NCBI GenBank assembly: GCA_949295325.1
Contig: CASFKG010000001.1
Location: 263,665 to 327,664 of the forward strand
Reading direction: 5' to 3'
Source of the DNA: an uncultured bacterium
GTDB lineage: Bacteria; Bacillota_I; Bacilli_A; RFN20; CAG-826
Length of the DNA: 64,000 bases
Within the stretch, counting starts at the first letter, position 1, and each line of letters begins with the position of its first letter. The notes below the pieces were generated by a model, which was given only the letters and a program-made list of their open reading frames with translations, made no database searches and had not been told where the DNA came from. The position numbers and the translations under genes are program-made. Shown in pieces: positions 2,957 through 29,969 of this stretch.

Positions 2957-3067
2957 GTTCGTCTCCTTTGTAACCGCTTACATAGTAGAGGCAAACGCCG
3001 TGTTTCAATTATCCCGGTTTTTCCAAAATGTTTACCCAAATTACCAAAATGCGTACAATGAAGACCG

Positions 3068-3901: not shown

Positions 3902-3920
3902 GCACCATCGAAAACCGATA

Positions 3921-4046
3921 TGGCAAAAGTTGCCAAGGCATTGGCAAGAGGTGCAACTAACTTCGTATGAAACTTGCCAATGGTTAGGCAAGTGTTGGTT
4001 ATACACCATGCATAAAGAAAACTTGCCATTGGTTTGGCAAGTTTTT
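3921..4046. repeat. Three tandem copies of an imperfect palindrome with 7-bp arms TTGCCAA/TTGGCAA and a short variable spacer (copies at 3929-3948, 3973-3992, 4022-4041).
   Basis: Read directly: gttgccaaggcattggcaag, cttgccaatggttaggcaag, cttgccattggtttggcaag. The cluster sits at the left GC boundary, just downstream of the OLD gene stop. Confidence 0.6.
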
Positions 4047-4066
4047 ACAAATCTGAGCAATAAGGT

Positions 4067-5977
4067 TTAACCCTGCTTTAGCTGGGCAAAGAGTGTTTTG
4101 AAATGATCCAATGTATCCTGGCTTAGCTTCAGTTGCCCTTTTTCTAGCCTCTCCTTGAACAACGTGGCAGCCCAAATCCTTTTGTAGGCCTCGTCTTCGC
4201 TGTTGGCGGAAGGGATGTTGCCCCTGTCCTCTTTGGCGAAGAGATCTTCTATCTCCTTAATGGATTCGTCTTTATCGAAGATGTCCCTTAAGGTAAGAAC
4301 CGAAGACGATAAAGCCGTGTCCTCCGCGCTCTCTTGAAACTTCCTTCCAGCTTCGTCCCCGTCGACAAGGACACGGCTCTTATGGAAGTGGTAATTGCCA
4401 AACTGAACAATAAGTTTCCTGAGCCGTTCCTTGTCGCCCTTCCTCCCTAGCCCGTTGAAAGGAAGGAAGTAGAGTTTGTCCTCGTCTAGTACCTTCTTGA
4501 AGGCCGTGAGATAAGCATAATCGGTAAACCCTTCTACCCAGACGACGATGTGTTCATTGTCGTAAAGGATGTTTGTTTCAACCGTCAAAGCATCCTTGAT
4601 CGGCCTTAATGCATCGGCATCGTTATCATCCAAGACGGTGAATGTATTATTTATATGACTGCCCAGATCACCAGGTTCCACCACTCTAAGTTCTTCGTAG
4701 CTATCAGGATTTATATAGAAGGGAGAATGCGTGGATATCACCACGGTTATGCCATTTCTGCGGGCAAAATCTGTAATGAATTCCTTCAGTTCACTCTGCC
4801 CATGCGGATGGAGATTTGTCGCTGGTTCGTCAAGCAAAAGAATGTCACCGGGTTTGAGAATACTAGCCGCGCAGACCCGGAAATAGAAATCGAAAAACCA
4901 TTTGAATCCGGTGGACTGCTGGGCATAGTTAAGGGGGACTGGCTCCTCTCCGTTCCCTTTCTTGTATATGTTGAAGCAGATGTCGTTGGTCTCGATATCG
5001 AGTTCGAACATATAGGACTGCGAACCGGTGGAGTAGAGTTTGTTGAACCTGTTGGATATGTTCTTTTTGATCTTGGCGTTTATTTTCCTCTCCAAACTTT
5101 TGATGAAGGAAGTGCTTCCGCTTTCCCGGCACAGTTCATAGGCTACCGACACTTCATTTGTGTCGACCCCTATTAAGCCGAAGAGCGATGTGAAGAACGG
5201 CATTCTGGATAGTGACGAGGGATTGCAATGCAAGTCCGAGGAGGAAAACGGCTTATCGTTATAGGAAACTATATCCGGTTTAATTGCAAATCCGTATTTC
5301 TTTTGAAATTCGGTTTTGGCCTCTTCTCCCGAGCAAACTTTCTCATAGTAAGTATAAAGAACACTCTTTGAGAAAATCGCCTTAGCTTTGACCATATCCT
5401 TAATTTCGGCTCGCACGGAATAGTTATAACTATTCCTTCCTATAACGGTGGAATTGCCCCCGTTCTTGTATATGCTGAAGAAGGGCTTGATAGCGTTAAA
5501 CAAGTCTTCATTGGACGTTTTACCATCAAACAAAATTGAACTATATCCTTCCTCGGAAATCTTAAAGCAGCCGAGAATGGTTTCGGCCTCCGTTTTCAAG
5601 GAGTCTAAATCAGCCTCTAGGAAGGTTCTCATGGACATGACATCCCCTCCGCTAAACTGAAGAGTCTGGGAATTGGAATTACGGGATTTGGAAACACTGA
5701 CGTTGTAGTAATTGTCGCCGTCTAAATAGATAAGGTTCACTTCGGCATAGCGGTGATCCTTGGACGGCAGAAAGTTGGTAATGTCATTGTTGCTGATCTC
5801 TACTGTTCCCAAAGCCCTAAGACCATCGATAACGTTACTTTTGCCCGAATTATTTGGGCCGATGATAATCGCTAGTCCACCTTCGTTCCCTTTCTGCATG
5901 GACCTATTGAGTACGAATTCTTCGTCTTCCCCGACGCCAAGATTCCGGTAATCGTGGAACTTCACTATTCTTTTCAT
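4067..5977 (-). CDS. OLD-family (overcoming lysogenization defect) ATPase-TOPRIM nuclease, GajA/class-1 OLD-like
   Basis: N-terminal ABC-type ATPase: Walker A GPNNSGKSN, Walker B LLLDEPATNLHP, H-loop STHSP. C-terminal OLD-type TOPRIM: VVWVEGFTDYAYL (EG..D) and VLVDGDEAG (DxD). 636 aa. Confidence 0.75.
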   Translation of the reverse strand: MKRIVKFHDYRNLGVGEDEEFVLNRSMQKGNEGGLAIIIGPNNSGKSNVIDGLRALGTVEISNNDITNFLPSKDHRYAEVNLIYLDGDNYYNVSVSKSRNSNSQTLQFSGGDVMSMRTFLEADLDSLKTEAETILGCFKISEEGYSSILFDGKTSNEDLFNAIKPFFSIYKNGGNSTVIGRNSYNYSVRAEIKDMVKAKAIFSKSVLYTYYEKVCSGEEAKTEFQKKYGFAIKPDIVSYNDKPFSSSDLHCNPSSLSRMPFFTSLFGLIGVDTNEVSVAYELCRESGSTSFIKSLERKINAKIKKNISNRFNKLYSTGSQSYMFELDIETNDICFNIYKKGNGEEPVPLNYAQQSTGFKWFFDFYFRVCAASILKPGDILLLDEPATNLHPHGQSELKEFITDFARRNGITVVISTHSPFYINPDSYEELRVVEPGDLGSHINNTFTVLDDNDADALRPIKDALTVETNILYDNEHIVVWVEGFTDYAYLTAFKKVLDEDKLYFLPFNGLGRKGDKERLRKLIVQFGNYHFHKSRVLVDGDEAGRKFQESAEDTALSSSVLTLRDIFDKDESIKEIEDLFAKEDRGNIPSANSEDEAYKRIWAATLFKERLEKGQLKLSQDTLDHFKTLFAQLKQG

Positions 5978-5980
5978 TTT

Positions 5981-6385
5981 CTATTTCTCCTTTTTATTAA
6001 TCTCTTTTATCAATGCAAGGGCCAAATGTTGGCCGGAGACAGCGCCTTCGCCAAGAGCCTTGAGAAGGGCGGTTCCCAAACCGTCGTTCTCGGGCTTACG
6101 CAGTTCGAGTACGAGATTTTTCTCGGACTCGGTTAGATTCAACTCGCTTTGGTCTTCCTTCTTCCTATCAAGTAGGAATCCAATGACGTTTTCCTTCCCA
6201 CAGTATGGATGAGAATCGATGTATTTGAACACCGCTAAAGGAAGTTCTCCTATAGATTTAAATTTCCTTTGGTCATATAGGTCTATGAACTTATAGACCG
6301 TAGGCCTAGACAAAGACAAATAAGAAGCGAGTTCGGTTATCTTGATATCAAGGTCTACCAATCTGTCCTTCAGGTTTTCCTTCAT
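5981..6385 (-). CDS. Small HTH DNA-binding protein, likely regulator of the downstream OLD gene
   Basis: HTH segment ITELASYLSLSRPTVYKFI near the N-terminus. Its stop codon is 3 nt from the OLD-family gene start on the same strand. Confidence 0.55.
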   Translation of the reverse strand: MKENLKDRLVDLDIKITELASYLSLSRPTVYKFIDLYDQRKFKSIGELPLAVFKYIDSHPYCGKENVIGFLLDRKKEDQSELNLTESEKNLVLELRKPENDGLGTALLKALGEGAVSGQHLALALIKEINKKEK

Positions 6386-6547
6386 GATAAGACATTATAT
6401 TATTTTACATTTTTTGTAAATACTATTTTACTATATCCGTAAAGCACAGCATTGAAATAGCGAAGGTGTTTGAGCTAATGAAAAAAGAAACATTCCTCGT
6501 AGAAAAAACGAGAACAATAAGAAACGATTGATTAAGAAGAACGAAAA

Positions 6548-6572
6548 CTCGCCAAATCATTGGCAAGTTTTG
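6548..6572. repeat. Fourth copy of the TTGCCAA/TTGGCAA palindrome (ctcgccaaatcattggcaagtttt), same orientation as copy 3
   Basis: Read directly. It abuts a TTGAAA -35-like hexamer (6570-6575) and lies upstream of a perfect TATAAT at 6608-6613, in the region between the divergent HTH and NTase genes. Confidence 0.55.
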
Positions 6573-6782
6573 AAAAGGATCGTCTAACGCTTTAATACCG
6601 ACTCCACTATAATGGCGCGATTTGAGGAACCGACCCTTCAAATGGTAGGAATGGGCACAAATAACTTTAGGAGGGGTTTTGATTATGTATCACTACATCG
6701 ATGACAAAGACTTTCTTCGCGAGCTCAATACATACGGAGGAATCTCACCAATGAACTCGGGCAGGCCATCAACAAAGGGCAT

Positions 6783-7334
6783 TTGAAAGTCAAATGCTAC
6801 CTAGTCGGCAGCGGTGCCCGAAGACTAATCACCCAAAACGGGAAAGAGCCGGTAGATCTGGACTACAACATCGTTATCATCGGAAATAAAAATGACTACG
6901 ATGCAAGAGAGTGCAAGGAAATGATCAGGGAGGGATTGAACAGGGTTCTTAAAAAGTATGGTCTACCAGATTCTCATGACTCGACTTCCTGTCTAACTAC
7001 CGACGGAATTGGTCCAACGGGAGGAAACAATACTCCGTTCAGTTTGGATATAGCTATTTTGAAGAAGACTGGAAAACAAGGACACTTGTCGCGGCTTATC
7101 CATTTCAAAACAGGTAATGTCGGTAATGATACCTATACCTGGAATGAGGTACCGAATACCAATGGGCTAGAAGAAAAAGTAAAAGCCCTAAGGGAATATG
7201 GCTATTGGTCAGAGGTACGCCAAGCCTACCTCAATCTAAAAAACATGTATCTAAATAAAAGGGACCATAATCATCCTTCATACATCTGCTATATGGAAGC
7301 GGTCAATCAAGTATTCCACAAAAATTTGAAATAG
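6783..7334 (+). CDS. Nucleotidyltransferase-fold protein (Pol-beta/MNT/KNTase-like). The N-terminus is uncertain.
   Basis: LVGSGARRLITQNGKEPVDLDYNIV matches hG[GS]x(9-13)Dh[DE]h (GSxAR...DxD). The frame is open from 6705, but the only RBS+ATG (AGGAGG...ATG at 6685) is in another frame; see findings. Confidence 0.5.
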   Translation: MKVKCYLVGSGARRLITQNGKEPVDLDYNIVIIGNKNDYDARECKEMIREGLNRVLKKYGLPDSHDSTSCLTTDGIGPTGGNNTPFSLDIAILKKTGKQGHLSRLIHFKTGNVGNDTYTWNEVPNTNGLEEKVKALREYGYWSEVRQAYLNLKNMYLNKRDHNHPSYICYMEAVNQVFHKNLK

Positions 7335-7444
7335 ACAGTCAACCGCGATCCAAGAAATTATCGTTTGTAGAATGGCTTCATTAGGGAGCCTGATTCTTTA
7401 GGGTTCCTTAAACCTAACACGAAACAAATTTTTGCGGTGAAACG

Positions 7445-10171
7445 TCATTGCTTGCGTTTAACGGTTTCGATTCCGTATAGGTTTGAAAGTATATACGCAT
7501 CTGCCTTTTCGTTTGGCTTTTTCAGATTCCCAAGGACGCGCTTTTGTGTCTCGGGACTCCAATATATCTTTAGAGTTTCCTTGGCTCTTGTTATTGCGGT
7601 GTAGAAGACATTCAAATCGACCCTATCTTCAACCTCTCTGGAAATTACGACTTTGACCGATTTGTATTCCAGTCCTTGGGCCCGATGGACGGAAACGGCG
7701 TAGGCAATCTGAAATGGAATGACTGACGAATGGTTTGGAAAATCTTTCTCCCCAATATTTGGATCTTTTTTAACATCGAAAGATATAACGGAGTGTTCGT
7801 CATCCACTCGCTTTTCAAGCCGATAATACCCCAAGTCGCCTTCGTCGGAGACCGAGGCCTCTACTAAAACCTTGAAGTACATTCTTTCCGAATCTTCGTT
7901 GAGATCGATTATCTTCCCTTTGGTATTGTTGTGGATTAAGGAAGTGGAAGCCCACGCATCGTTAAACAAAATCGGATCGCCTATCTTGAAAGTATCGAAG
8001 CCATAGGTTACTGACTTTTCGTGGTTATTGGCCTGAAGCAGCTTATTTATATTGTTTATGCCATATAGCCCACCGTAATTGAGGCACAATATGATTTCGT
8101 CGTCGTCTTCCCGTTTAAACAAAGATTCGTCCAGTTTTGCAACGTAGCCGCCGGTTAAGAACAGTTCGTCTATCTTACCTTCGTTATTTCTGACCGCACC
8201 CCAAAGAGTCTTAAGATCATTGTTGGTCGAACGATAGGTATTCTTAAGTTCGATAACGTAGGGCCCCTTGAGGAAATATCTGGCAATGCCGAACCAGTTG
8301 CCGAATGTGATTGATTCGATTTGATACTCGTCGCCGGCTAAAACCAAGCAGTTGAATTTCCCCGCTTTCAAAATCGACATCATCTCGGAATTGTTGACCG
8401 TACTGCATTCGTCGATAAACAAAACATCGCAAGCAAAGCGATTTGGATCTTTGAGATATTTCGTAATTGTCGAATAACGGTGGTTTCTTTCCGTTTTTCT
8501 TTTAAGATTGTCAACTGCGGAATTAGTATTGGCCAAAAACACCATTTTTGCGTTGCCCCAAAAATTAGCGATGTGCTTCATCAATGTGGATTTGCCAGTG
8601 CCGGCAGAGCCATAGATAAAAGCTACCCTCGATTGGTCGAACATATGGATCATCGCATCTTTTTTCACTTCGTCGTCTATAGGATACGATCCTAGCCACT
8701 TCTTCACCTTTTCGGCATAACCGTCGATTCCAGAAGAAACATATGTCTTTAAGGTTTTGATTATTTGGGCTGTATCATCAGCATATTGGTCAATGTAGTA
8801 GAGGTTCTTTCCGAATATCCTTAAGCGGCGATTAGCGTGACCGGAATATAAGTTCTCGTTGTAACGTTTAATGCAATTATCAATATCTTGGAAGGAATCA
8901 AGATCGGATTTTTTTGTAAATATCTCCCTGTTGACCTCGGCATTGTTCTTTACCTGTCTTGCTAGGAATTCGTGTTCGCGGCCATCTGGTGGAATCGAAT
9001 ACAAAACATCGAAAAAGTCCGGATTATGATTGCAAAGCGAAGTACAAAAAGGCATTTTATCGAACGGGATGCAGCCTGGTTTTAAATACAGTCTCGATAA
9101 TGCTTTACATTGTTGTAATGCCGTTTGGTCTTTTATGACTTTGTTGTTCATCTTAAAAAGGAGATAACGGAGGACATTGCCACCTTTGGCGTCTTTTTTG
9201 CTTAAAATGATCTCTCTGCAGCAGTCAAGCAGAAGGCAGATCGGAGAACTCGATTTACCATTTGTCATCTCTTGTTTGAATGCTTCGTATCCCTCATCAT
9301 CCAGGGTAACAATGCGCGTAAGAGACATGCGCTTTTCCTTAATATAATTCATTAATGGCAGATAGTCAGAACCATAACCGATTCTGGTATTAAGCCGGCC
9401 AAACAAACAGGCAAAGTTATTTAGTTCACACGGACGTATGGAAACATAGTATTTATCTATCACGAGCATAGGCATATTCCTGCCTAGAATCCTGACAGTG
9501 CCGACGAAAGCCTCGACCTTGATGGAATAGTTGTCCATGACTTTTTCTTTGGAAAAGGCGATTACCCTTCCGAATTTGCTAGCATTATCAATAGCATTTC
9601 CCAAAGTTATTTGGTAATAGACTTTCTTGTTGGCAAAGAACGGTTTAACCCTATAGACGTAGTAACGGCCGTCCAGTCCCGCAGGTTTACGGGATCTGCT
9701 GGGGTTTTCAATCTCTTCGGCGACTTTTTCGTAGTACTCGGATTGTTCCTTGTCGGTATCTAACGGGAAATCATGAATGTTATGCAAAAGTTCAATGTTC
9801 CATCCATCCTTGGCAAACTTTTTGGCTGTGACAAGAAAAGGGAGATAGTGAAGCATGAGCCTCTCCGAATCTTCGCCCGTCAGTGTGAAATGGGAAACGG
9901 ATATCTGGAGCAATTTGTGAAATTTGCTGAGCCACTCGCATCTGGCTTCGGCTTCCTTCAAATACGGTTTGATTTCACTGTCCCATTTGTGAGGAATAGG
10001 TTTACCCTCCATAACTAGCATATTAGCCATGAAACCTTCGACGAAATTACGGAGATTCGAAAGGATGTTCTGACTTAAGAGGGAGCGTTTGTCGGGTTTG
10101 TCTTTAAACTCCTCGATATTATCACAAATGACTTGATCGGCGTAAAACATCGAATCGATAATATTGGACAT
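7445..10171 (-). CDS. SF1B (RecD/Pif1/AAA_30-type) helicase with an N-terminal domain of about 490 aa of unknown function
   Basis: Walker A AFIYGSAGTGKST, Walker B VLFIDECS, motif III LAGDEYQ, motif VI VHRAQGLEYKSV, C-terminal YTAITRAKETL. I recognise no motifs in the first ~490 aa. Confidence 0.75.
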   Translation of the reverse strand: MSNIIDSMFYADQVICDNIEEFKDKPDKRSLLSQNILSNLRNFVEGFMANMLVMEGKPIPHKWDSEIKPYLKEAEARCEWLSKFHKLLQISVSHFTLTGEDSERLMLHYLPFLVTAKKFAKDGWNIELLHNIHDFPLDTDKEQSEYYEKVAEEIENPSRSRKPAGLDGRYYVYRVKPFFANKKVYYQITLGNAIDNASKFGRVIAFSKEKVMDNYSIKVEAFVGTVRILGRNMPMLVIDKYYVSIRPCELNNFACLFGRLNTRIGYGSDYLPLMNYIKEKRMSLTRIVTLDDEGYEAFKQEMTNGKSSSPICLLLDCCREIILSKKDAKGGNVLRYLLFKMNNKVIKDQTALQQCKALSRLYLKPGCIPFDKMPFCTSLCNHNPDFFDVLYSIPPDGREHEFLARQVKNNAEVNREIFTKKSDLDSFQDIDNCIKRYNENLYSGHANRRLRIFGKNLYYIDQYADDTAQIIKTLKTYVSSGIDGYAEKVKKWLGSYPIDDEVKKDAMIHMFDQSRVAFIYGSAGTGKSTLMKHIANFWGNAKMVFLANTNSAVDNLKRKTERNHRYSTITKYLKDPNRFACDVLFIDECSTVNNSEMMSILKAGKFNCLVLAGDEYQIESITFGNWFGIARYFLKGPYVIELKNTYRSTNNDLKTLWGAVRNNEGKIDELFLTGGYVAKLDESLFKREDDDEIILCLNYGGLYGINNINKLLQANNHEKSVTYGFDTFKIGDPILFNDAWASTSLIHNNTKGKIIDLNEDSERMYFKVLVEASVSDEGDLGYYRLEKRVDDEHSVISFDVKKDPNIGEKDFPNHSSVIPFQIAYAVSVHRAQGLEYKSVKVVISREVEDRVDLNVFYTAITRAKETLKIYWSPETQKRVLGNLKKPNEKADAYILSNLYGIETVKRKQ

Positions 10172-10774
10172 ACTAATCCTCCTTCCTTTCGAGTGTTCAA
10201 ATCCTTTAACTGGTGCCCCATTTTCTAGCTTGCCCCTCTAAGGCGGGGATAATTTTATCCATAATGGGGCAAATGTTTGAAGCAAAAACGTATTTTCATA
10301 AAAAACTCTTCGAAACGAGCATGAGCTCATTCTTTGGGCGAATAAAAAAGAAGTATTCGAGGTGATGTGGCGATTCCAATTGCAACCAAGCAAAGTAAAA
10401 AATAGAAAGCCGGACTCCTTGTCGTATGAAATGTTAAAGAGACACCATAATATCTTTTTTGCGAATATCCTAGCCTAGATCTTACCGTTCCTACGAATTC
10501 CTAGACTTTAGGATTAATAATCATGTTATTAGCAATTACTTTGTCATCATTTAAAACAAATTGGCATAAAAAGGATGCCATGCAGTGTACCGGTGACGAA
10601 GTAAGCGCCAATTCAAAATATCAGCATCTTGCCAGTCATGTCCGAAGAAAAGGGGCATGGTTAAAGTTCGCTGGGTTATATGATTTTTATATAAGCGAAT
10701 CCTTTGTTTTTAATTGCCTCAGAAGGAGGTAGCTGACGTTCAGGATTTAAGAATGAAAGTTTCCTCTGATAAGC

Positions 10775-11247
10775 TCAGTCCTTCTGCCTTTCTTTTAAAA
10801 CATTAAGAACCGATCCGCCCCAAGTTTCCGAACCGTTGTCGGATATCTTTTTTGCCGGATTGCCGGCAATGCAGATGTTCGGCGTTTTAAAGGATTTATT
10901 CACCAACGAGTCGGCGCCGATGGCGATTCCGTCCGCTATGGACACCCCCCAACCAGCGTGGAACCGGTGCCGATCGTTACGTTGTCGCCGATATCGGGAC
11001 TTGAGCCGTCATGGCCGCCGGCAACAAGAGAAACGTTGAACTGGACCGAAAAGTTCCTGCCTATGCGTGTCGCATTGATCATGATGTTATGCGGGTGGAA
11101 CATCAGAAAACCGGGCTCTATTACATTAAGGGGCAGGAAAACGCTGTACTTACGGGAAATCTTTGCCCTTAGGTATTTGATTAGAAACGCAGATAGTTTC
11201 CTTCCTCTTTTCCTAAGATATTCTTCTTTCCTTAATAGCGAGACCAT
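10775..11247 (-). pseudogene. Hexapeptide-repeat sugar/serine O-acetyltransferase (WcaB/CysE-like) interrupted by a frameshift at a C6 (G6 on the coding strand) tract
   Basis: One frame reads ...HPHNIMINATRIGRNFSVQFNVSLVAGGHDGSSPDIGDNVTIGTGSTLVGG and stops. The hexapeptide continues in another frame as VSIADGIAIGADSLVNKSFKTPNICIAGNPAKKISDNGSE. The junction is the cccccc run at 10945-10950. Confidence 0.6.
10945..10950. repeat. C6/G6 homopolymer at the frameshift point of the acetyltransferase gene
   Basis: gacacccccc aacc, read directly; adding one base or removing two restores the hexapeptide reading frame. A second G6 run sits at 11278-11283, about 31 nt upstream of the gene start. Confidence 0.6.
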
Positions 11248-11436
11248 CTTCCAAGCAATGGCGCGTTCAGATAAAACGGGGGGCGAAAAATAATCGGATG
11301 CTTATATCCATATAGAGAACCCTCGTATTCAATGAGTGCTTAGTAATTCTTAGCAAGACTTTTCATAAACATCGACAATCTGTTCAAAAAGGCCTCTTTT
11401 ATAACCATACAAGTCCGAGAAAAGGCAGGTGAGGTT

Positions 11437-12711: not shown

Positions 12712-12733
12712 AACAATTCAATTATGCGAGTGA

Positions 12734-19140: not shown

Positions 19141-19327
19141 TAAATCCCAGAAATCTTCTTTTCTCCGTTTTTGCAGCTTATTACAACCGAAAACTTGATA
19201 ATGCGACAAGAATAGAGCAAGAAAAAGAACAGACCACGTTTTTATTGGTTTCTTTGAACAGAAAAAACTCGTCTAATTATGATCACTTTGATTTATTAAT
19301 ATCACAAAAATCAATTAAAATCTTTTC

Positions 19328-21636: not shown

Positions 21637-21640
21637 AAAA

Positions 21641-22762
21641 TTAGTTATTTTTTATCGAAATGAAATCAAAGTATGATTCCATTACAAGATCGAAATCAAA
21701 CCGCCCCGCCTTAGACAAGGCGTTTTGCGATAGACGCTTGCAAAGATTGTCATCCGTATAGAGTTGTTTGATTTTCTCAGCTAGTTCTTCGGCGTCACCT
21801 CTTTTGAAAACAAGGCCGTCGAATCCATCTGTAACCACGCTGTCATATCCAGGCCAGTCACTCGTTATCACCGGTATGCCAAGGCAATACGACTCGAGCA
21901 AAGCATTTGACATGCCTTCGAAGTCAGAAGTCATAACGAAGGCTCTAGACGAAAGTATTTTCGACGCAATTTCCTTGGTTGAACCATTATAAAATACATT
22001 ATTCATCAAATCCTTTTCTTTGATCATACTTTCTAGCCGAGCAATGTCATCACTACTACCGGTTCCGTAAATATCCAATTTGATTTCGGGATAAGAACGT
22101 CTTACGATATCGAAACCATCCAGCAGAACATCCAATCTCTTTTGCAAAAAACACAGGCGACTATAGGAAATAAAATTGTTATTGTTCAATTTCCATTTAT
22201 TCGATAAATCAATGGTTACCGGATTAGGTATTACGTGGCCTCGTTTTTGAATTTTTTCTGAATAACATGACTTTTCGTAAGAGGTCTGGAAAAGAAAACC
22301 TTTGACGTTCCTGCACAGGAATTCAGTAAGTTTTTTAACCCTTGGTGACTTCCCGGGGCCGTTGGGGTCGTTTATTTCCCTAACGACTACCTTAGAAGCA
22401 AACTTCGGGGCGGCAAAAGAAACAATTGAGCCTATTTTGAACGTCATACAGAGGATGCAATCCGGATTAAAAGCTTTTGTCATACGTCTAGTCATCCTCA
22501 CCCACGTCGGAATCGACCGCACTTTGTTTTCGATTGGATTATAAGGTTTTGGAAAATAGACAACCTTTATGCTTTTGCCTACGGAGAAGAAATTAGGGTC
22601 AACTTTACGCTGCATGAAAGCAACGATCACGACCTGCCATCCTTGGGCAGCAAAATAATTAGCAACCGCGGCGCCGATCCTTTCTAACCCGCCGTTTCTT
22701 AAGCCGGAGGTAAAAATTAGTAACCGCTTATTTTCCATAGTACTGCTTATACCATTTAGCAA
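21641..22762 (-). CDS. GT4 glycosyltransferase (true start probably at the MENKRLLIF Met near 22738)
   Basis: 373 aa. GT4-like C-terminus (TSDFEGMSNALLESYCLGIPVITSD). Confidence 0.75.
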   Translation of the reverse strand: MLNGISSTMENKRLLIFTSGLRNGGLERIGAAVANYFAAQGWQVVIVAFMQRKVDPNFFSVGKSIKVVYFPKPYNPIENKVRSIPTWVRMTRRMTKAFNPDCILCMTFKIGSIVSFAAPKFASKVVVREINDPNGPGKSPRVKKLTEFLCRNVKGFLFQTSYEKSCYSEKIQKRGHVIPNPVTIDLSNKWKLNNNNFISYSRLCFLQKRLDVLLDGFDIVRRSYPEIKLDIYGTGSSDDIARLESMIKEKDLMNNVFYNGSTKEIASKILSSRAFVMTSDFEGMSNALLESYCLGIPVITSDWPGYDSVVTDGFDGLVFKRGDAEELAEKIKQLYTDDNLCKRLSQNALSKAGRFDFDLVMESYFDFISIKNN

Positions 22763-23750
22763 ACGCGTTTAGACCGTCTTTCAAAGAAGTGCTAGGTTTG
22801 AAATGGAAGTCGGCATAAAGTTTTGACACATCAGCGAAGGTTTCGTAAACATCGCCCGGCTGCATAGGCAGGTAGTCATAATCCCCCTTCTTTGAAATCA
22901 AACCCTCCTTAATGAGACATTCCTGAAGAATATCGACGAACTCCTTGAGGGGTACGGGGTTATTATTACCGATGTTGTAGACTGTGTGGCACACACCATT
23001 GGGATCTTTTTTGGGAGTAGAGAATAAAACGTCTATAACGCCTTTGACGATGTCATCTATATAGGTAAAGTCCCTATAAAGATCGCCATTGTTGAAGAGC
23101 TTTATCTTCTCCCCTTTGATTAGCTTCTGGGTAAAGGAGAAATATGCCATATCAGGTCTTCCCCAAGGACCGTAGACCGTGAAGAAGCGAAGCCCAGTGG
23201 CCGGGAACCCATAAAGTTTGGAATAGCAATAGGCCATAAGTTCATTGCTCTTCTTGGTCGCGGCATACAGCGAGACGGGCATATCAGTATTGCTGCTTTC
23301 TGCATAAGGAACGTCATTGCTGTTTCCATAAACCGAGGAAGAAGAAGCATAAACAAGGTGAGATACCGGTGTTTCGGTCTCACGAGAATGTCTAACGGCC
23401 TCAAGGATATTAAAGAACCCGATGATATTGGATTTTATGTATGATTCCGGATGGGAAATGGAATACCTGACGCCGGCCTGTGCCGCAAGGTTTAATACTA
23501 TGTCGGGCTTTTCTTTTGCGAATACGTCTTTAACGAATTCATAATTAGATATATCGCCTTCTTCAAAAACAAATTTAGAATAGCCTCCTAAATCCTTCAG
23601 CCTGGCAATCTTCAAATTTCGATCATAGTAATCATTGAGATTGTCAACCGAAATGATTGAACAATCATGGCCTTTCAGTAAACTCTTGGCGGTGGAATAG
23701 CCAATAAAGCCAGCACCACCAGTGATAAGTATTTTTGTGTTTCTATTCAT
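22728..23750 (-). CDS. NAD-dependent sugar-nucleotide epimerase (UDP-glucuronate 4-epimerase-like SDR)
   Basis: ILITGGAGFIGYSTAKSL Rossmann N-terminus and YxxxK-type SDR; 340 aa. Next to ugd, which is consistent with a UDP-GlcA to UDP-GalA pathway. Confidence 0.75.
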   Translation of the reverse strand: MNRNTKILITGGAGFIGYSTAKSLLKGHDCSIISVDNLNDYYDRNLKIARLKDLGGYSKFVFEEGDISNYEFVKDVFAKEKPDIVLNLAAQAGVRYSISHPESYIKSNIIGFFNILEAVRHSRETETPVSHLVYASSSSVYGNSNDVPYAESSNTDMPVSLYAATKKSNELMAYCYSKLYGFPATGLRFFTVYGPWGRPDMAYFSFTQKLIKGEKIKLFNNGDLYRDFTYIDDIVKGVIDVLFSTPKKDPNGVCHTVYNIGNNNPVPLKEFVDILQECLIKEGLISKKGDYDYLPMQPGDVYETFADVSKLYADFHFKPSTSLKDGLNAFAKWYKQYYGK

Positions 23751-23759
23751 ATTTGCTCC

Positions 23760-25091
23760 TTATACAACCTTTCTTGTTTTTAATATTGGAGTCAAAACGC
23801 CGGTGTAATTACCGGTTAGCAATGAGTCATCAGCAGTTTCCAAGGCCCAAACAAGGCCAATGAACATCATGTCCGCTTTAGCATTAAATGTGACAAGAAA
23901 GAATTGATTGATAAAAATATATATTACAAGCAGCACGATGAGAGGCCTGTTCGCGTTTTTAGTATGTCTGATTCTAAACAAAGGAAAAAGAATAAGCATT
24001 TCGCCAAAAATTCCGCCAAAAATGCCATAATCAGCAAGAGTTTCACCGATATTGTTATGAGCCATCCTGAAAAAGTTTAATTGAACAGAAAATGTGCCAT
24101 TTCCAATTAATGGCGAATCCAGAAACAGTCTCAAGGATGCAACTAAAGCATCTAGTCTGCCAGTAGCAGAGGCATCGCTTAGAGAAGAATCTCCTTGTCC
24201 AATTAAACTAAGAAAAATGCCTAACAATCGCTCTCTGTAATATGCAAAAGAATCTAATGACAGCAAAACAATGCCTGATATCAAGGTAATGAGCAGAAAG
24301 AAAAAATACAGCCATCTATACTTTTTTGGGAAGTAAAAGAAAATGGTGCTCAGGACAACGACAATAATCAGCAGTAAATTCGAAACAGATCCTGTAAATG
24401 GAATTAATAAAGAAAACGCAATAGCAAAAAGATTGCTGATTGTTTTGAATATAAGTTTTGAACAAAAAATTGCAAATCCAAAATTATAAGCCGCAGAAAG
24501 TGCGATTTTTCTCGCGACATCATTTTGATTTCCCAATTCTACAGCAAGAGATCTAGAGCCGAAATCAAAAGACAACAGAACACGTACATTTGTTACAACT
24601 AAATATAGGCAAAATACCCAGCTTGCAACAGCGATAATAAAGAAAGGAAGTAATTTATACCTGGGATTCGGGGGTTCAATAATAATCCAGAAAAACGTGA
24701 AGACGGATATTAAAGCAACTGATAACTGAGTAAATGGGGAAGAAGAATTAATTGGTAAATTGACAACATAGGATACAACATAAATTATGCACAATAGTCC
24801 ATAAAGGCAAACAAATAACCGAAGTTTAAAAGAATTCGGATTCCATAAAATGGCATAGATTAACCCAAGAGCTAGAAAGACAAAGAAAAGTAACCTTCCA
24901 ATAAGATTGAATGGGTAAAGTCCATCGAATCCAAGGAAAATGAGGACATACATAAAGAAGAAAAATGTCGAAATCCAATAAATTACTTGTCTAGTCCTGG
25001 ATGAACTACGGAGACCCTTAAAGAAAGAATTGATTTGGCAAGATAAAGTACGAAGACTAATCATTTGAAGGCCTTGCTCCTCCCAAGACAA
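23760..25091 (-). CDS. wzy: Wzy-type O-antigen/CPS polymerase-like polytopic membrane protein
   Basis: 443 aa, about 10-12 TM segments; located between the glycosyltransferases and the flippase. Confidence 0.55.
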   Translation of the reverse strand: MSWEEQGLQMISLRTLSCQINSFFKGLRSSSRTRQVIYWISTFFFFMYVLIFLGFDGLYPFNLIGRLLFFVFLALGLIYAILWNPNSFKLRLFVCLYGLLCIIYVVSYVVNLPINSSSPFTQLSVALISVFTFFWIIIEPPNPRYKLLPFFIIAVASWVFCLYLVVTNVRVLLSFDFGSRSLAVELGNQNDVARKIALSAAYNFGFAIFCSKLIFKTISNLFAIAFSLLIPFTGSVSNLLLIIVVVLSTIFFYFPKKYRWLYFFFLLITLISGIVLLSLDSFAYYRERLLGIFLSLIGQGDSSLSDASATGRLDALVASLRLFLDSPLIGNGTFSVQLNFFRMAHNNIGETLADYGIFGGIFGEMLILFPLFRIRHTKNANRPLIVLLVIYIFINQFFLVTFNAKADMMFIGLVWALETADDSLLTGNYTGVLTPILKTRKVV

Positions 25092-26397
25092 ATTTCAAGA
25101 CCAAATACACCGCAATGGACAGAACTAAACTTGCCAAAAAATAGCTGGACCATATAGCATTAAAGGACACAAAAGTGATTTTATATGTTTGTTTGAGGAA
25201 CACATCGGTAATTTTACAAGCAAACAATAAGATAGCCGATACAGCAGAAATAACCAGATTAACAAACCTAAATGATTTATCTAATCTGTAGGCAATCAAT
25301 GGTAGCAGAACACAGGGGATAATCAAAAAATAACCGATGCTTAGGAGAACGATTGTGTTAATCGAAGCATCGGCGTTCTTAAAAAGGGCAATCGACAAGT
25401 CGTTAGAATAGGCAAAAGGAATTGCACTTCTCCCAACAGGGGTTAGAAGGAAAGTTCCGTTCAAATTTTCAATAGGTCCACGGACGTATGTTGAATATGA
25501 GCTTATAACATTATCCATTACGTTCAAAAATGAATATTTTTGTGGCGGTGTAAAGAGCGCAAGGCCAACATTGCCAAGATCATTTTCAGCAAGCCTCGCT
25601 ATATTAGAAACGATAATGAAGTTGCCGAAACACTTTTGCAATTTCGCGCCCGTATCATAATCGTTGTAAATTTGATCCCTATCGATGCAATAGTTTCTAT
25701 TAAATCCATTTACGTGGAAAACATTTGCAATTCGATAAGAATAAGTTGCGTCTCCACTCGAAACAATTAAACCTTCCTTGTTATTTAAAGAAATCAAATC
25801 GTCGTAGGACAAAAATTTACCATTTGATGCGGAAATAAGAACATCGGCCAAGTAATCCGGAATATACACAAATCCATCAAATAAAGAGGAATCAAAACTT
25901 AATTCGATGTTTTTCGGTTGATACTTATAAAGGTTGATGCACAACATCTCGAAACGAACTAAAGATTCCTGATTTGTGTAATTTCCTCCAGACGCCACTC
26001 CAAAGTCGCTAAACAAATTCTCTCCGCCAAAGGAAATGTCAAAATCTCTGATTGCCCCGTTTTCTGGTTCTACAAGCGCTGGCATGGATGCAAATTCAAA
26101 TCCGCTGAAATTCATAGAATAGAACGTATTCATGAAGCAGCTATATAAAGAATTGAAATGGTTATTTTCCCCATTTTCGGTGCCATCGCAATATAAGAGG
26201 CACCCTAAATTCTCAGATTTCAGCCTGAGACTGTCGTTTAGATATTTCGTAGTTTCAATATCTCTTTTGACATAACGGGTATTAGGGGCTCCAATCCCTA
26301 CACAAATGGCGCCACAGACGAAAAAGGAAACTGAAAGAATCCAAATAACATGATCCTTTATTGCTTTTGTTACCTTAGTAACCCAACCCATATCCAT
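25057..26397 (-). CDS. Membrane protein of unknown function (N-terminal TM, ~330-aa extracytoplasmic domain, C-terminal TM bundle)
   Basis: I recognise no motifs; topology is inferred from the hydrophobic segments. Confidence 0.5.
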   Translation of the reverse strand: MDMGWVTKVTKAIKDHVIWILSVSFFVCGAICVGIGAPNTRYVKRDIETTKYLNDSLRLKSENLGCLLYCDGTENGENNHFNSLYSCFMNTFYSMNFSGFEFASMPALVEPENGAIRDFDISFGGENLFSDFGVASGGNYTNQESLVRFEMLCINLYKYQPKNIELSFDSSLFDGFVYIPDYLADVLISASNGKFLSYDDLISLNNKEGLIVSSGDATYSYRIANVFHVNGFNRNYCIDRDQIYNDYDTGAKLQKCFGNFIIVSNIARLAENDLGNVGLALFTPPQKYSFLNVMDNVISSYSTYVRGPIENLNGTFLLTPVGRSAIPFAYSNDLSIALFKNADASINTIVLLSIGYFLIIPCVLLPLIAYRLDKSFRFVNLVISAVSAILLFACKITDVFLKQTYKITFVSFNAIWSSYFLASLVLSIAVYLVLKFVLGGARPSND

Positions 26398-27278
26398 TAC
26401 CTTAAATGGCGATATTTATTTAACCCGTAAACAGCCCAATGCATTAAGCAATAACACGATTTGAAAAAACCGATTCTTAACTTTCTATAAACGTACCATT
26501 GCTTACCAATCAGTTTTAGTTTGCCATATGACCGTGCACTTGGATGAATCCTATAGGTAGCAATTACAGCGGGGTTTCCATTACATGATTCGCATTTTTT
26601 TAGAAGGGTAAGCCAAAAGACTAAATCTTCGCAGTAATAAACGCTTTCATCAAAACGGGCATCGGGAAAATATTCCCTGTCAAACACCGCTGTAAGAGGT
26701 GCTATAGGATTCCCCTTGAGTATTGAACTGTAAGTGTTCTTTTGCGGCACGATGTAGTCGCTGACTTTATCTCCAGAAATGCGCCTATAGGAAGAACAAA
26801 CAAAAGGCCCGTTGGCTTTTATGAAATCCAACTGGCTCTGCAAAAAGCACGGATCCCACATATCGTCTGCATCCAAAAAGGCGATATATCGTCCTTTAGC
26901 AATATCTAAGCCCCTATTCCTTTGGATGGCTGGTCCTTGGTTTCTATCGGCTTTGACCAATCTGATTTTCGGATTATCTCCTATTAATCGCTTCGCTAAC
27001 TCATATGACCCATCCGTTGAACAATCGTCTACGATTATCCATTCCCAATCTTTAACAGTTTGGTTAATGACACTATTGTAAGTATCTTCGAAAAAATCCC
27101 TAGAGTTATATAAGGGCGTGATAATGCTCACTAAGGGACGCTTTTCTGACATCGTTTGCATTATATTAAGGATAAAAGCTCTCAAACAATCCGGAAGATA
27201 GTTTATCTTTCTTTTGCGGCCTTTGCTTTGAGAAGTTTCCAGCAAATCCAATCCACACGAAAGATTACGCAAAGGCAA
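26397..27278 (-). CDS. GT2 glycosyltransferase
   Basis: VSIITPLYNSRDFFEDTYNSVINQTVKDWEWIIVDDCSTDGS and FLDADD (DXD). Confidence 0.75.
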   Translation of the reverse strand: MPLRNLSCGLDLLETSQSKGRKRKINYLPDCLRAFILNIMQTMSEKRPLVSIITPLYNSRDFFEDTYNSVINQTVKDWEWIIVDDCSTDGSYELAKRLIGDNPKIRLVKADRNQGPAIQRNRGLDIAKGRYIAFLDADDMWDPCFLQSQLDFIKANGPFVCSSYRRISGDKVSDYIVPQKNTYSSILKGNPIAPLTAVFDREYFPDARFDESVYYCEDLVFWLTLLKKCESCNGNPAVIATYRIHPSARSYGKLKLIGKQWYVYRKLRIGFFKSCYCLMHWAVYGLNKYRHLR

Positions 27279-27958
27279 TGCTTGTAATACCTCTTGTCAA
27301 TGTTTCTCATCGCTTTAAGCATTTTTATTAAAGAGTAGTCGTATACCTTCCTTAACGTTTGTAATCCCTGTTTGGTTTCCGTGAAAGACTTGTCGTTTAG
27401 ACCGCGCAAAAGGAACGGAACGTACAAAGCGCGAATAATATATTGATTGAAGAGGCTCCTACGTTTTTCATTGCACTGGATAGGAATTTGCAAATTGATC
27501 TCAAACGTCTTGCTTGCCGAATCCTTCGAATTGAAATCGGCTCCCCTAGAAACGGAATGGGACAAGGATGAAGAGCGCTGGACATAGCAATATATAGCTT
27601 TTTTGAACAAATACAGTTTTCCAGCCGTCATTGAAAGCGGCATAGAAAAGAGGAAACTCCACGAAAACAAAGCTATAGACGATTTCTGAAACTATGCGAA
27701 AGTGGGCAAAAGCAAATCGGGGTCTGGGCATATCTCCAGTGCGCTAAAGAAGAAGCCGGGTAGACATGATCGTCGTCATCCATGCAAACTACGTACTTGC
27801 CTTTGGGCAGGGAAAAACCAATTTGCCGAGCACCATACAACTTGGAATTGTTTGTTAGGATTATAAAATGTCTTTCTTAGGACATCCCCTATAGCATCGA
27901 CAACCTCTTTGCTATTGTCTTCGGAATGATCATCCACAGCTATGGTTTCATAATCCAA
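27203..27958 (-). pseudogene. Second, heavily degraded GT2 remnant, paralogous to the 18244-19140 remnant
   Basis: Fragments IAVDDHSEDNS, an out-of-frame VCMDDDDH and a C-terminal piece RRSLFNQYIIRALYVPFLLRGLNDKSF. Pseudogene 1 has a similar piece, RKTLLEQYIVKSMYFPTILRGAFDGSF. Confidence 0.45.
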
Positions 27959-28132
27959 ATAGATTTGTTCAAGCAGCGAATCAAGAATAGTCCCTATTCT
28001 TTTGCTTACACTTTGAAAACAAACGATTATTGAAAATAACGATATGAACCTGTTTAGTTCCGCTATCGTGTTTAATGAATTCTTGTCTCCGTTTAAATGA
28101 TTATCTAATGAGCAAAACAGGCGGCAGATTTT

Positions 28133-29539
28133 CTAATTCGTGTAAGGACTGCTGAGTGGATTTTCACCAAATCTTGACATCTCTATATTAGCCGGGCCGA
28201 TTATGACTATCTTTACTTTGTCTTCTTTAATCGTCGGATAATACATAACGCTCATGTACTTTTGCCCATCATTGAAGAAGAGTTCAAGAACATATGAGTC
28301 TATATAGGCCTCTATTGAAGTTAATCCATTAGGGAATTCAATGAAACGCTCGGTTCCCGTATATAGGCCTGATTTTGCTACTTCTCTATCGTCTCTTATC
28401 AGCATGATCCCCAGATTAGTGTTGGGATCATATTCGAAATCAATCCCGCCATGGGGGTTTGAGAAGAAGGTTGCCTTGAAATCCCCCTTGATCTCGCTGA
28501 ATCTTATTCTGGAATTCGAAGGTACGGCAAACTCATTAGAAGTAACTTGTTTGCTCTCCCCAAAATAATCGTTAATCGATGGATAAGGCCTTTGCCTGAG
28601 TTGGCCGTTCTCCACACTAAGCAGGCGCGGCAAGGCCATACAACCCAGGTAACCAGAAAGTTCCCTGGTGGGAATCTTGTCGAAGTCCTTGCCCCATAGG
28701 GACAACCAAGCGGTTAAGGCCCCTTGCCCGTTGCCAATATCGGTTCCTTGGGCGGCGTAATAGTCAAAACCGCTATCTAGGTCAAATGGCTCGGATTCTG
28801 GTATGAATCTAAGGCCATCGCTTATATGACCTAGAATGCCAATATTGTTTTGATCGTTCTGAAATATATAACCTTTCCTCTTAAGGCCAATGGGGCTAGA
28901 TATCAATAGAACGTAATCCGACAAGAACAACAGGCAGGGACACTCGAACATATATAAGGAGTCGTCCTGGTAGAATACGCTTTTATAAATAGCCTTCTCT
29001 CCTTTAAGTTCGTATAAAAGGATGCGTCCCCTTTTATGCGTGTCCATTGCCCCGATGATGAAATACGTCTTTCCCTTGTAAGAGAAAACATAGGGATCGC
29101 GGAAGCTATCTTCCTGTATCCATTCAGGGGGATAGGCTACCGGATTATCCGGAATCTGATGGAAGAGTCCGTCATTGCCCAACTTGGCCAAAGCGAAAGT
29201 CTGTTTGTTCTCTTCCGCTGCGGCATAGGCAAGGTATTTTTGTCCATTATATGAATAGCTGCTTCCCGACCAGCATCCCCCAAACGCCTTTCCTATGCCT
29301 TCATATGGAAATTTAGGCATTAGCTTTACGCCTTCGTCCTTGTAAACAACCAGATCCTTTGAAGTAGCAAGCCTCCAGGAAAGGAAGGATGGATGAGCAA
29401 TCAGGTCATGGTATTGATAGTAAAGGTAAAAGATTCCATCTTTTCCTAAGTGAAAACCATTGGGGTCGTTCATCCACCCTTCAGGTGGAGTTAAATGATA
29501 TAAGGGTCTAAATCTGTCCATGTCAAAATCATTAAACAA
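28133..29539 (-). CDS. GH32 beta-fructofuranosidase (sucrose-6-phosphate hydrolase/levanase family)
   Basis: WMNDPNG catalytic motif near the N-terminus; 468 aa. Confidence 0.85.
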   Translation of the reverse strand: MFNDFDMDRFRPLYHLTPPEGWMNDPNGFHLGKDGIFYLYYQYHDLIAHPSFLSWRLATSKDLVVYKDEGVKLMPKFPYEGIGKAFGGCWSGSSYSYNGQKYLAYAAAEENKQTFALAKLGNDGLFHQIPDNPVAYPPEWIQEDSFRDPYVFSYKGKTYFIIGAMDTHKRGRILLYELKGEKAIYKSVFYQDDSLYMFECPCLLFLSDYVLLISSPIGLKRKGYIFQNDQNNIGILGHISDGLRFIPESEPFDLDSGFDYYAAQGTDIGNGQGALTAWLSLWGKDFDKIPTRELSGYLGCMALPRLLSVENGQLRQRPYPSINDYFGESKQVTSNEFAVPSNSRIRFSEIKGDFKATFFSNPHGGIDFEYDPNTNLGIMLIRDDREVAKSGLYTGTERFIEFPNGLTSIEAYIDSYVLELFFNDGQKYMSVMYYPTIKEDKVKIVIIGPANIEMSRFGENPLSSPYTN

Positions 29540-29969
29540 ACTGGGGGTATATAGGCAAGAGCAAATTATTAATTCTTTTGCCGAAGGTATTCTTCATATC
29601 TATTTTGATAATCCGGCCAATTGTCTGAGTTGGTCCCTAAATCCTTTGCCATTCCATTGACAATATTTCAACATATCCCGCCCATAGTTAATAAAAGGAG
29701 AAAAAACTACTAGGCTTATCCCCAATTCGAAAAAACATCCCTCAAGGTAATGCGCATAAATTTCAATGCTGTCCTAAAGCATGCCCTTAGCATGGCAATT
29801 GTTCACTCTTATCGTACTGCAATACTCTCAGGAAATAATCCCAACTCAACGGTATATAGTTCAACCGGTCTTGATTAAAGCATTGGATTTACTGTGAAAA
29901 GCGTAAAATGCTCAATAGAAAAAGCCGACGGAAATACCCTCGGCGAAAAATCCATTGAAAATCTAAAAA

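Follow-up and report, generated by a model that had tools for sequence, protein, structure and literature searches.

A low-GC genomic island beside an AraC-type regulator gene in an uncultured Bacilli-type bacterium

How did some 26 kb of AT-rich DNA with defence-like, polysaccharide and fructosidase genes, and with no recognisable mobility gene, come to lie within clearly more GC-rich surroundings? The question is raised by a stretch of 64,000 nucleotides (the window) from an uncultured bacterium (GenBank assembly GCA_949295325.1, contig CASFKG010000001.1, forward-strand positions 263,665 to 327,664), in which the region 3905–29960 is enclosed by an AraC-type regulator gene on the left and by the remnant of a LacI-type regulator gene on the right. 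The region of about 26 kb proves to be a genuine genomic island, of a type that is well known, and consists of foreign, AT-rich DNA. It is probably a horizontally acquired mosaic, and not an intact mobile element, in a plasticity hotspot with the AraC 3' end on one side and a resident polysaccharide locus on the other. The hotspot context largely answers how the island arrived, in kind and not in mechanism.

Composition and edges of the island

The edges are defined by four features of the window:

3068–3901, plus strand: AraC-type regulator gene with its stop at 3901, the left flank of the island
3861–3905, no strand: left junction; GC content changes in the final AraC codons and the stop; DNA homology to the sister species ends at 3849
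29540–29995, no strand: right junction and AT-rich non-coding stretch; the foreign DNA appears to enter the last eight codons of the LacI remnant
29970–30431, minus strand: LacI-family regulator remnant of 153 amino acids (aa) and 56% GC, with a helix-turn-helix (HTH) and the start of the sugar-binding domain (Pfam LacI 3.7e-4)

The GC content of positions 3905–29960 was 40.0%, and the 51 windows of 1 kb inside the island spanned 0.339–0.461. The 43 host-like 1-kb windows had a mean of 0.576 (standard deviation 0.017, minimum 0.546), without overlap with the range of the island. Sliding-window GC was 0.55–0.59 at positions 1–3000 versus 0.34–0.46 between about 4000 and 30000, and the maximum-likelihood change points were found at 3861, in the last AraC codons, and at about 30000. 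The tetranucleotide distance to the host profile was 38–68 within the island and 15–22 outside it. Also the GC content at third codon positions (GC3) differed between the island genes (0.31–0.56) and the host genes (0.71–0.84), and the first axis of the codon-usage analysis separated all island genes from all host genes. Deviant composition with sharp edges, the mark of a genomic island, was thus recovered by GC, tetranucleotides and codon usage alike.

A first-pass annotation, made by eye, had proposed a low-GC island of about 26 kb here. Computation bears this out, with 40.0% versus 57.6 ± 1.7% GC and with edges falling where that annotation had placed them; composition was far from uniform, the island standing apart from the host in both sliding-window GC and tetranucleotides. 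Its estimate of 58–62% GC for the flanks was too high, as the computed flank GC was 55–60% and the 7 kb to the right (30.4–37.1 kb) reached only 51%, though ancestral. The right flank is altogether uneven: the LacI-like open reading frame (ORF) has 56% GC and is succeeded by an AT-rich promoter gap, then by the stretch of 51% at 30.4–37.1 kb and, from 37.1 kb, by 57%.

The right edge lies in a shortened regulator gene. A full-length LacI protein has an HTH and a complete sugar-binding domain in about 315–370 aa, and the remnant has 153 aa. It aligned weakly (E = 0.034) to residues 5–147 of the 330-aa 3ctp_A, and its HTH remained below the Pfam threshold (20.7 versus 27 bits). This coverage agrees with the 3' truncation that had been suspected by eye. 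The homology stops at "HLLD", and the last eight codons (SYKEKFSI), rich in A and T, have no match in the alignment with 3ctp_A; the right junction was therefore placed at about 29995. Among 5.8 billion proteins the remnant had no homologue but itself. The two distant relatives L009 and L010 (loci of relatives are given by L numbers) carry a full-length LacI gene of 315 aa, convergent with AraC, in the same orientation and about 1.5 kb away, which is suggestive of an ancestral AraC–LacI neighbourhood. The check for a full-length LacI ortholog at this place in relatives, suggested in the first-pass annotation, thus led to a 315-aa LacI near AraC. The remnant is 38% identical to the LacI of L009 over the first 65 residues, and this is no proof of ancestral adjacency.

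No tRNA gene and no Rfam family was found in the region, and domains of integrases, transposases, relaxases or phage structural proteins were absent from all ORFs of at least 90 aa. Six-frame translations of three of the longer non-coding stretches (10172–11436, 16649–17106 and 29540–29969) held no remnants of mobility domains, and the last of them no remnant of any protein domain. No direct or inverted repeat was found between the two island edges, the alignment score equalling the shuffle mean, and no tandem array was found. The usual mobility signature of genomic islands, consisting of an integrase or transposase, insertion at a tRNA gene and direct repeats, is thus lacking, and the earlier impression that the region has no integrase, transposase, tRNA or attachment repeat was upheld by domain, Rfam, six-frame and edge-alignment searches. 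Attachment repeats at the edges were rejected on the edge alignment, and a palindrome-like site at 29646–29663 had no support in its surroundings; a prophage was rejected as neither phage structural nor integrase families were present.

Exact-protein look-ups of AraC and the LacI remnant led to an ENA contig (321 kb) and a Logan contig (42 kb), both identical to the window. The Logan contig spans window positions 1538 to about 43900, including both junctions, and is base for base the same as the ENA contig. Identity was checked on these two contigs, and a listed NCBI-sourced copy on a contig of 654 kb was left out. The collections hold one genome of this species, and the comparisons below are therefore between species.

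The AraC 3' end and the resident flanks in relatives

For the left side, six loci of uncultured "Bacilli/Firmicutes" metagenome-assembled genomes (MAGs) were obtained from a genome scan with the neighbouring solute-binding protein (SBP). The order permease–SBP–AraC was kept in all six loci and in further sister-species contigs, with SBP 76–81% identical. Island genes were absent within 9–10 kb beyond AraC in the six MAG loci and these further contigs, as were right-flank genes within 9 kb in the six loci, and no island gene occurred in any fetched relative locus of either flank. The sister species is 64% identical to the window in AraC and 80% in SBP, and the homologue search found no AraC homologue nearer than 64%.

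Within the sister species the DNA beyond AraC differs between strains. Loci L092 and L099 share 96.6% identity along the 10.85 kb that end at AraC codon 283, and beyond this codon they are unrelated. One cargo includes GmrSD, a DUF234 ATPase, two unknown genes and Wadjet JetABC; another, in other strains, Cas9–Cas1–Cas2 and an AAA_5/LlaJI pair; and the third a GmrSD variant that has 560 bp of additional sequence and lacks the DUF234 ATPase. These three unrelated cargo sequences (L092/L094/L096, L099/L100 and L119/L120) begin after the same nucleotide, ...GGGAGGGCAAGG, at about locus position 10848. Four different AraC C-termini occur in one 90% cluster of the sister species, the fourth being SSSGN (protein P0012). 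One breakpoint with different defence systems in related genomes, as is characteristic of a defence hotspot, was accordingly found in one sister species. No recombinase was present within 10 kb of AraC in any sister-species island. The left junction of the window lies at the last AraC codons equivalent to the sister-species breakpoint, and also here genes of defence-related families, encoding an OLD nuclease and a PDC-S53 helicase, come after AraC. As the breakpoint region is shared by the sister-species cargoes and the window, the AraC 3' end is a recurrent breakpoint attracting defence cargo.

The GC content of the loci L108, L106, L104, L092 and of the window ranges from about 39% to 62%, a wide spread within one clade. 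Low-GC members of the clade are conceivable donors of the island.

The relatives of the right side were reached through amylase homologues at 66%, 61% and 55% identity. They share with the window a backbone in the order FnlC, FnlB, FnlA, DUF6788 (in L104 and L116), a flippase-like protein, Bac_transf, a Wzy-like protein, a hydrolase, the amylase, an epimerase, DUF1836 and GatB-A-C. The backbone is kept from VCA0040 onwards in L104, from FnlC in L116 and from FnlB in L106, and L108 has a shorter core without the Fnl genes. Identities between the window and the relatives range from 30% to 91%, being lowest in Wzy and reaching 91% in FnlA of L104. VCA0040 belongs to an undecaprenyl-phosphate-translocase-like family of Pfam. 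Since the backbone is kept in relatives, everything from 30715 rightwards, including the stretch with 51% GC, is vertically inherited.

Also the Fnl side is plastic, and insertion sequences visit it, as follows from a comparison of two strains of one relative species. Loci L104 and L116 are 95.5% identical over 15.8 kb and diverge just left of FnlC, where L104 has a VCA0040-like gene (1–899) and L116 an IS3-family (rve) transposase (209–865). The metagenome scan with the amylase gave a best match of 52% identity, the 90% clusters of FnlA and Bac_transf included this genome only, and two VCA0040 homologues (P0053 and P0052) were situated in unrelated contexts. Each flank is conserved in relatives of its own, and no fetched relative locus spans both the AraC and the Fnl sides. 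Alignment against close relatives, by which the first-pass annotation had hoped to find the empty site and the exact junctions, thus confirmed at species level that both flanks are conserved and that the island genes are absent from the fetched loci, and yielded no strain-level empty site.

Three further observations concern the resident right side. An AAA_21 ATPase and RloB pair, absent from the window, is located between the hydrolase and the amylase in L106 (7999–9854), a relative whose sample accession neighbours that of the window, and resembles a small defence-type insertion. The listed 627-aa ORF at window positions 42280–44163 probably comprises two genes as in the relatives, one for an epimerase (about 338 aa) and one for a DUF1836 protein (about 257 aa); with a GC1 of 0.68 and a GC3 of 0.59 it is unusual, which suggests a wrong reading frame for the N-terminal part. 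At 46935–53811 the GC content dips a second time, to 49%. This stretch covers three paralogous surface proteins (577, 519 and 855 aa); all have a signal peptide and are anchored in the membrane at the C-terminus, and two of them have an identical C-terminal tail. Relatives have homologues of these at 33–45% identity in the same place downstream of GatC, and they look like fast-evolving resident genes rather than an island.

Genes carried by the island

Defence-like, polysaccharide and fructosidase modules had been named in the first-pass annotation, and domain or profile matches identified all three kinds. The leftmost features, at 3.9–10.2 kb, make up the defence block:

3925–4045, no strand: three palindromes, AAAACTTGCCA-N6-TGGCAAGTTTT, between the convergent AraC and OLD genes
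4067–5977, minus strand: OLD-family ATPase–TOPRIM nuclease, 636 aa (Pfam AAA_21 1.2e-16, AAA_15 1.8e-12)
5981–6385, minus strand: small HTH protein, 134 aa, with the HTH at the N-terminus (weak matches: HTH_17 0.012, excisionase-family TIGR01764 0.0025)
6544–6571, no strand: remaining palindrome of the four, located upstream of the HTH gene at a distance of about 160 nt (pairings 84% and 89% complementary)
6685–7334, plus strand: ORF with a nucleotidyltransferase-like motif G-S-x13-D-x-D (VGSGARRLITQNGKEPVDLD); sole family match PADLOC 'Cyclase' at 0.0087
7445–10171, minus strand: superfamily 1 (SF1; RecD/Dda-like) helicase, 908 aa (Pfam Viral_helicase1, AAA_30, UvrD_C_2)

The OLD protein has the architecture of its family, an N-terminal ABC-type ATPase followed by a C-terminal TOPRIM domain with E ... 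DxD. The motifs are readable in the translation: Walker A GPNNSGKS, Walker B LLLDEP, the TOPRIM glutamate in VEG and the DxD in DGDEAG. Against PADLOC it matched the Old profile at 2.5e-13 over residues 378–568, with only partial matches to AriA and GajA, and it weakly matched the OLD nuclease structure 6p74 of the PDB. The HTH and OLD genes probably form one operon, as the HTH stop is only 4 nt upstream of the OLD start.

The HTH–OLD pair is bracketed by four related hairpin palindromes, three on the left and one on the right. The left-edge cluster had been noticed by eye and consists of three copies at 3925–4045; the copy at 6544–6571 had been overlooked. The latter gave a local alignment score of 41 against a shuffle mean of 18.1 (standard deviation 2.3), and the looser pattern TTGCCA-N6-TGGCAA had 9 matches at two or fewer mismatches versus 2.3 expected, a number reached by 0 of 100 shuffles. 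The third palindrome (4014–4050) has A and T runs on both sides, resembling a bidirectional intrinsic terminator, and the one at 6544–6571 is terminator-like on the minus strand. The four palindromes could be terminators or equally operators for the HTH protein, both being candidate roles judged from sequence. At one or fewer mismatches the palindrome occurs nowhere else in the window except at the doubtful 29646–29663, and it is absent from the fetched relative loci, with matches only in L001 and L002, which are copies of the window.

One viral contig matches the palindrome, probably by chance. The site at 29646–29663 (TTGCCATTCCATTGACAA), near the right edge, is a one-mismatch match to the palindrome core, and its surroundings have no further similarity; also this match is probably due to chance. 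An integron cassette was considered as well. The attC cores R''/R' read RYYYAAC ... GTTRRRY, which by inspection the arms AAAACTTGCCA ... TGGCAAGTTTT do not fit, and there is no integrase; the candidate was rejected.

The nucleotidyltransferase-like ORF is probably frameshifted, judging from its reading frames: a 32-aa ORF at 6685–6780 is in another frame than the main one, which is open from 6705 and has its first start, TTG, at 6783. Its AlphaFold model had a mean predicted local distance difference test score (pLDDT) of 44.7 and was unusable.

The helicase is a full-length member of the PADLOC family PDC-S53 (1086 bits, residues 1–901 on profile positions 1–896 of 900), and its N-terminal part of about 500 aa had no domain match. 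Full-length homologues at 38–43% identity were found in two phages of Firmicutes and on plasmids from several phyla. No near-identical donor DNA was found in plasmid or phage collections, and no close relatives of OLD or the helicase in viral contigs. PADLOC lists PDC-S53 as a candidate defence family only. A full-text search of the literature library used found no paper naming it, and we know of no anti-phage activity shown for it. Gabija (GajA and GajB) was rejected for this gene set: the GajA profiles matched partially (best 3.3e-13), and the helicase matched GajB only at about 1e-3 and is a full-length PDC-S53. The arrangement speaks against Gabija as well, with an opposite-strand gene and 1.5 kb between the OLD and helicase genes.

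The defence block would thus comprise an HTH–OLD cassette insulated by four hairpin palindromes, a decayed nucleotidyltransferase-like gene and a single-gene PDC-S53 helicase. By inference from the families, its predicted functions are an OLD-type ATP-driven nuclease under a small HTH regulator and a separate single-gene helicase system.

The rest of the island, from 10.8 kb onwards, holds the glycan block and the fructosidase gene:

10832–11247, minus strand: hexapeptide-repeat acetyltransferase pseudogene, its N-terminal part (10936–11247) and C-terminal part (10832–10945) in different frames
11437–12711, minus strand: 424-aa protein of no family, with a CxxCxxC motif and a faint QueC/PP-loop-like resemblance (QueC E = 0.62)
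12734–14719, minus strand: fusion of a family 2 glycosyltransferase (GT2) and a polysaccharide pyruvyl transferase, 661 aa (Pfam Glycos_transf_2 7.8e-31, PS_pyruv_trans 1.6e-25)
15101–16648, minus strand: polytopic membrane protein, 515 aa, with at least 12 hydrophobic segments in the hydropathy scan; putative Wzx-type flippase
17107–18057, minus strand: GT2, 316 aa (Pfam 7.4e-14)
18253–19196, minus strand: GT2 pseudogene A, with an in-frame stop and a frameshift
19328–20536, plus strand: UDP-glucose 6-dehydrogenase family protein (Ugd), 402 aa (N-terminal, central and C-terminal Pfam UDPG_MGDP_dh domains)
20533–22762, minus strand: two family 4 glycosyltransferases (GT4), 367 and 373 aa (Pfam Glycos_transf_1, Glyco_transf_4)
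22728–23750, minus strand: NAD-dependent nucleotide-sugar epimerase/dehydratase, 340 aa (Pfam GDP_Man_Dehyd 1.1e-51, Epimerase 6.6e-49)
23760–25091, minus strand: Wzy-type polymerase (O-antigen ligase family), 443 aa, with 10 hydrophobic segments (Pfam Wzy_C 43.2 bits versus a cut-off of 31.7)
25057–26397, minus strand: membrane-anchored protein, 446 aa, by hydropathy scan; no family assigned in profile searches
26397–27278, minus strand: GT2, 293 aa (Pfam 3e-35)
27260–28048, minus strand: GT2 pseudogene B, a paralogue of pseudogene A, in three pieces over two frames
28133–29539, minus strand: glycoside hydrolase family 32 (GH32) protein of the beta-fructofuranosidase/sucrose-6-phosphate hydrolase family (Pfam Glyco_hydro_32N 1.3e-52; PHROG 'levanase' 5e-62)

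Of the features of a Wzx/Wzy cluster, the block has the Wzy polymerase together with genes for three GT2 proteins (one of them the pyruvyl-transferase fusion), two GT4 proteins, UDP-glucose dehydrogenase and the epimerase. Low GC is typical of O-antigen and capsule-type polysaccharide loci. The 515-aa membrane protein is a putative Wzx flippase, judged on context and topology only: it had no Pfam or NCBIfam match even at E = 10, PDB sequence, profile and hhalign searches were empty, and its AlphaFold model (pLDDT 46.7) was unusable. Polytopic membrane proteins of about 510 aa occupy the flippase position of both the foreign (15101–16648) and the resident (35476–37002) glycan cluster; neither was matched in Pfam, NCBIfam or the PDB, not even at E = 10, and the two have no detectable mutual similarity.

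No initiating polyprenyl-phosphate glycosyl-phosphate transferase was found within 3905–29960, the nearest priming transferase being the resident Bac_transf at 37027–37683 (TIGR03025 4e-67). As it lacks a priming transferase of its own, the island glycan block presumably uses the resident one. The block (10.8–28.1 kb) thus offers Wzy, a putative flippase, five intact glycosyltransferases, genes for uronic-acid sugar-nucleotide synthesis and epimerisation, and a pyruvyl transferase. Most likely primed by the resident Bac_transf, it would build a different repeat unit, pyruvylated and containing uronic acid, and thereby an altered or added surface polysaccharide. The GH32 protein scored 223 bits against TIGR01322 scrB_fam, below the cut-off of 356; its likely start is an ATG 18 nt inside the listed ORF, and no N-terminal signal peptide was seen by eye. 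As a cytoplasmic fructosidase it would add the use of fructan or sucrose.

The cargo shows decay and a mosaic composition. Three genes are clear pseudogenes (the acetyltransferase and GT2 A and B) and one, the nucleotidyltransferase-like gene, is a probable one. Also GC3 is divided within the island, being 0.46–0.56 in the defence genes, Ugd, the epimerase and GH32, and 0.31–0.44 in the glycosyltransferase, Wzy and putative flippase genes.

Origin of the island and its known counterparts

In the reading that we consider probable, the region would have been formed by recombination at the hotspot, in a single event or in several, their number and order being conjectural. The left crossover would have taken place at the AraC 3' end, in the same breakpoint region as that of other cargoes in the sister species, and the right join would have been illegitimate, deleting the 3' half of the LacI gene. 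The region would now be unable to move by itself. The two codon-usage groups, the three or four decayed genes, the clipped LacI and the absence of a mobility gene point to stepwise assembly and some residence time. Several points weigh against this mosaic origin. Contigs with the exact AraC or LacI remnant are 100% identical to the window, so that no island-free strain is available and adjacency of AraC to LacI or VCA0040 is unproven. The islands of the sister species are seen to 10 kb from AraC, and the relatives of the right side only to VCA0040, and an integrase could sit beyond these limits. The sharp breakpoint shared in the sister species hints at a site-specific process, and site-specific integration accounts for it no less well than homologous recombination does. 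Along the island, the tetranucleotide distance to its mean is fairly even (13–25 throughout), which is compatible with a single acquisition; the search for a donor in plasmid and phage collections gave no near-identical DNA; and the cargo functions (flippase, PDC-S53, defence) are inferred from context or family assignment.

Several of the same points favour a single integrative element, such as a genomic island, an integrative mobilisable element or a degraded integrative and conjugative element, that inserted site-specifically in the AraC 3' end and brought all three modules at once, with a later deletion at the right end removing the recombinase and the 3' half of LacI. The three sister-species cargoes start after the same AraC nucleotide and each supplies its own last codons, which is typical of 3'-end integrators. 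Composition is fairly even along the island, the truncated LacI shows that a deletion or an illegitimate join has occurred at the right end, and one strain of a relative has an IS3-family transposase on the corresponding side of its Fnl genes. However, neither the ORFs nor the scanned non-coding stretches contain a recombinase, relaxase, conjugation or phage gene or a remnant of one, repeats common to the two edges are absent in direct and in inverted orientation, the sister-species islands are free of recombinase genes over the 10 kb next to AraC, and codon usage divides the cargo into two groups. Such an element is rather unlikely, and it stays a serious rival because of the sharp breakpoint common to the sister-species cargoes. 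Distinctly less likely is that the glycan block is a long-resident variable part of the polysaccharide locus, kept at low GC by repeated exchange in a low-GC gene pool, with only the defence block as hotspot cargo. The island adjoins a conserved backbone with a priming transferase, a Wzy-like protein and the Fnl genes, and lacks a priming transferase itself; the backbone has no glycosyltransferases in L104, L106 and L116, which would place them elsewhere, possibly left of VCA0040, and with 51% GC it is itself below the host. The clade also has low-GC members (L108 at about 39%), and the pseudogenes suggest long residence. Against this, the glycan genes have GC3 values of 0.31–0.44 versus about 0.8 in the host, without drift to host composition, GH32 and the LacI remnant separate the glycan block from the backbone, and the island glycan genes have no homologue in any fetched relative locus.

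There is a slim chance that the AraC 3' end is a dedicated hotspot without a local integrase, where defence cargo, here also glycan cargo, is swapped with nucleotide sharpness by an undescribed targeting mechanism; a recombinase acting from elsewhere in the genome, or cassette exchange guided by the hairpin palindromes, would then be possible. It is very improbable that the island is an assembly chimera in which low-GC metagenome DNA from another organism was misjoined into a high-GC contig. In favour of it, the sequence derives from a metagenome assembly, its copies all go back to one sample or to closely linked records, and the island is in no second genome. A chimera would, however, need two false joins with host DNA on either side, repeated by different assemblers, and the ENA and Logan contigs agree base for base across both junctions. 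In addition, the right join leaves an ORF running from LacI into AT-rich DNA, and neither junction holds a repeat able to mislead an assembler.

The locus shows that this poorly known, uncultured Bacilli-type lineage arranges its genes for accessory immunity and surface glycans in the manner of well-studied bacteria: they lie at a fixed hotspot next to conserved genes, and close relatives often differ by swapped cargo. The island exemplifies known kinds in an under-studied lineage, the one potentially new feature being the nucleotide-sharp breakpoint common to three cargoes of the sister species. It offers material for tests in the compact HTH–OLD cassette with its candidate operator or terminator palindromes, in a full-length copy of PDC-S53, and in a foreign glycan module that seemingly needs the priming enzyme of the host.

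The components have known counterparts to differing degrees. The helicase has a full-length match of 1086 bits to the PADLOC family PDC-S53, and the same architecture occurs on plasmids and in prophages, but it is only 38–43% identical to the plasmid and phage copies. The OLD protein resembles Old of phage P2, GajA of Gabija and AriA of PARIS in combining an ABC-type ATPase with a C-terminal TOPRIM domain and in having all the motifs. It differs from them in that the profile matches are partial, the partner is a small HTH protein and not a GajB-type helicase or AriB, and four palindromes bracket the cassette. The glycan block is comparable to Wzx/Wzy loci for O-antigen, capsule or exopolysaccharide in having Wzy, several GT2 and GT4 proteins, genes for sugar nucleotides and modification, low GC and a position adjoining conserved polysaccharide genes. 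Unlike such loci, it is separated from the backbone by GH32 and a regulator remnant and has neither a priming transferase nor a chain-length regulator; its flippase is putative, and decay has affected three of its genes. For surface-polysaccharide loci, exchange through homologous recombination has been described (PMC7305143).

The closest counterparts of the locus as a whole are defence hotspots. In E. coli, defence hotspot #37 is without a detectable mobile element in 68% of the occupied cases, and similar hotspots of P. aeruginosa have been cited (PMC10121019). The present locus differs from these in its uncultured Bacilli-type host, in a breakpoint inside the last codons of an AraC-type gene, in a hotspot that the relatives show at its left boundary only, and in the 17-kb polysaccharide block and GH32 that the window cargo adds. 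With them it shares conserved flanks, a fixed breakpoint and defence systems that are unrelated between strains, often without recognisable means of mobilisation.

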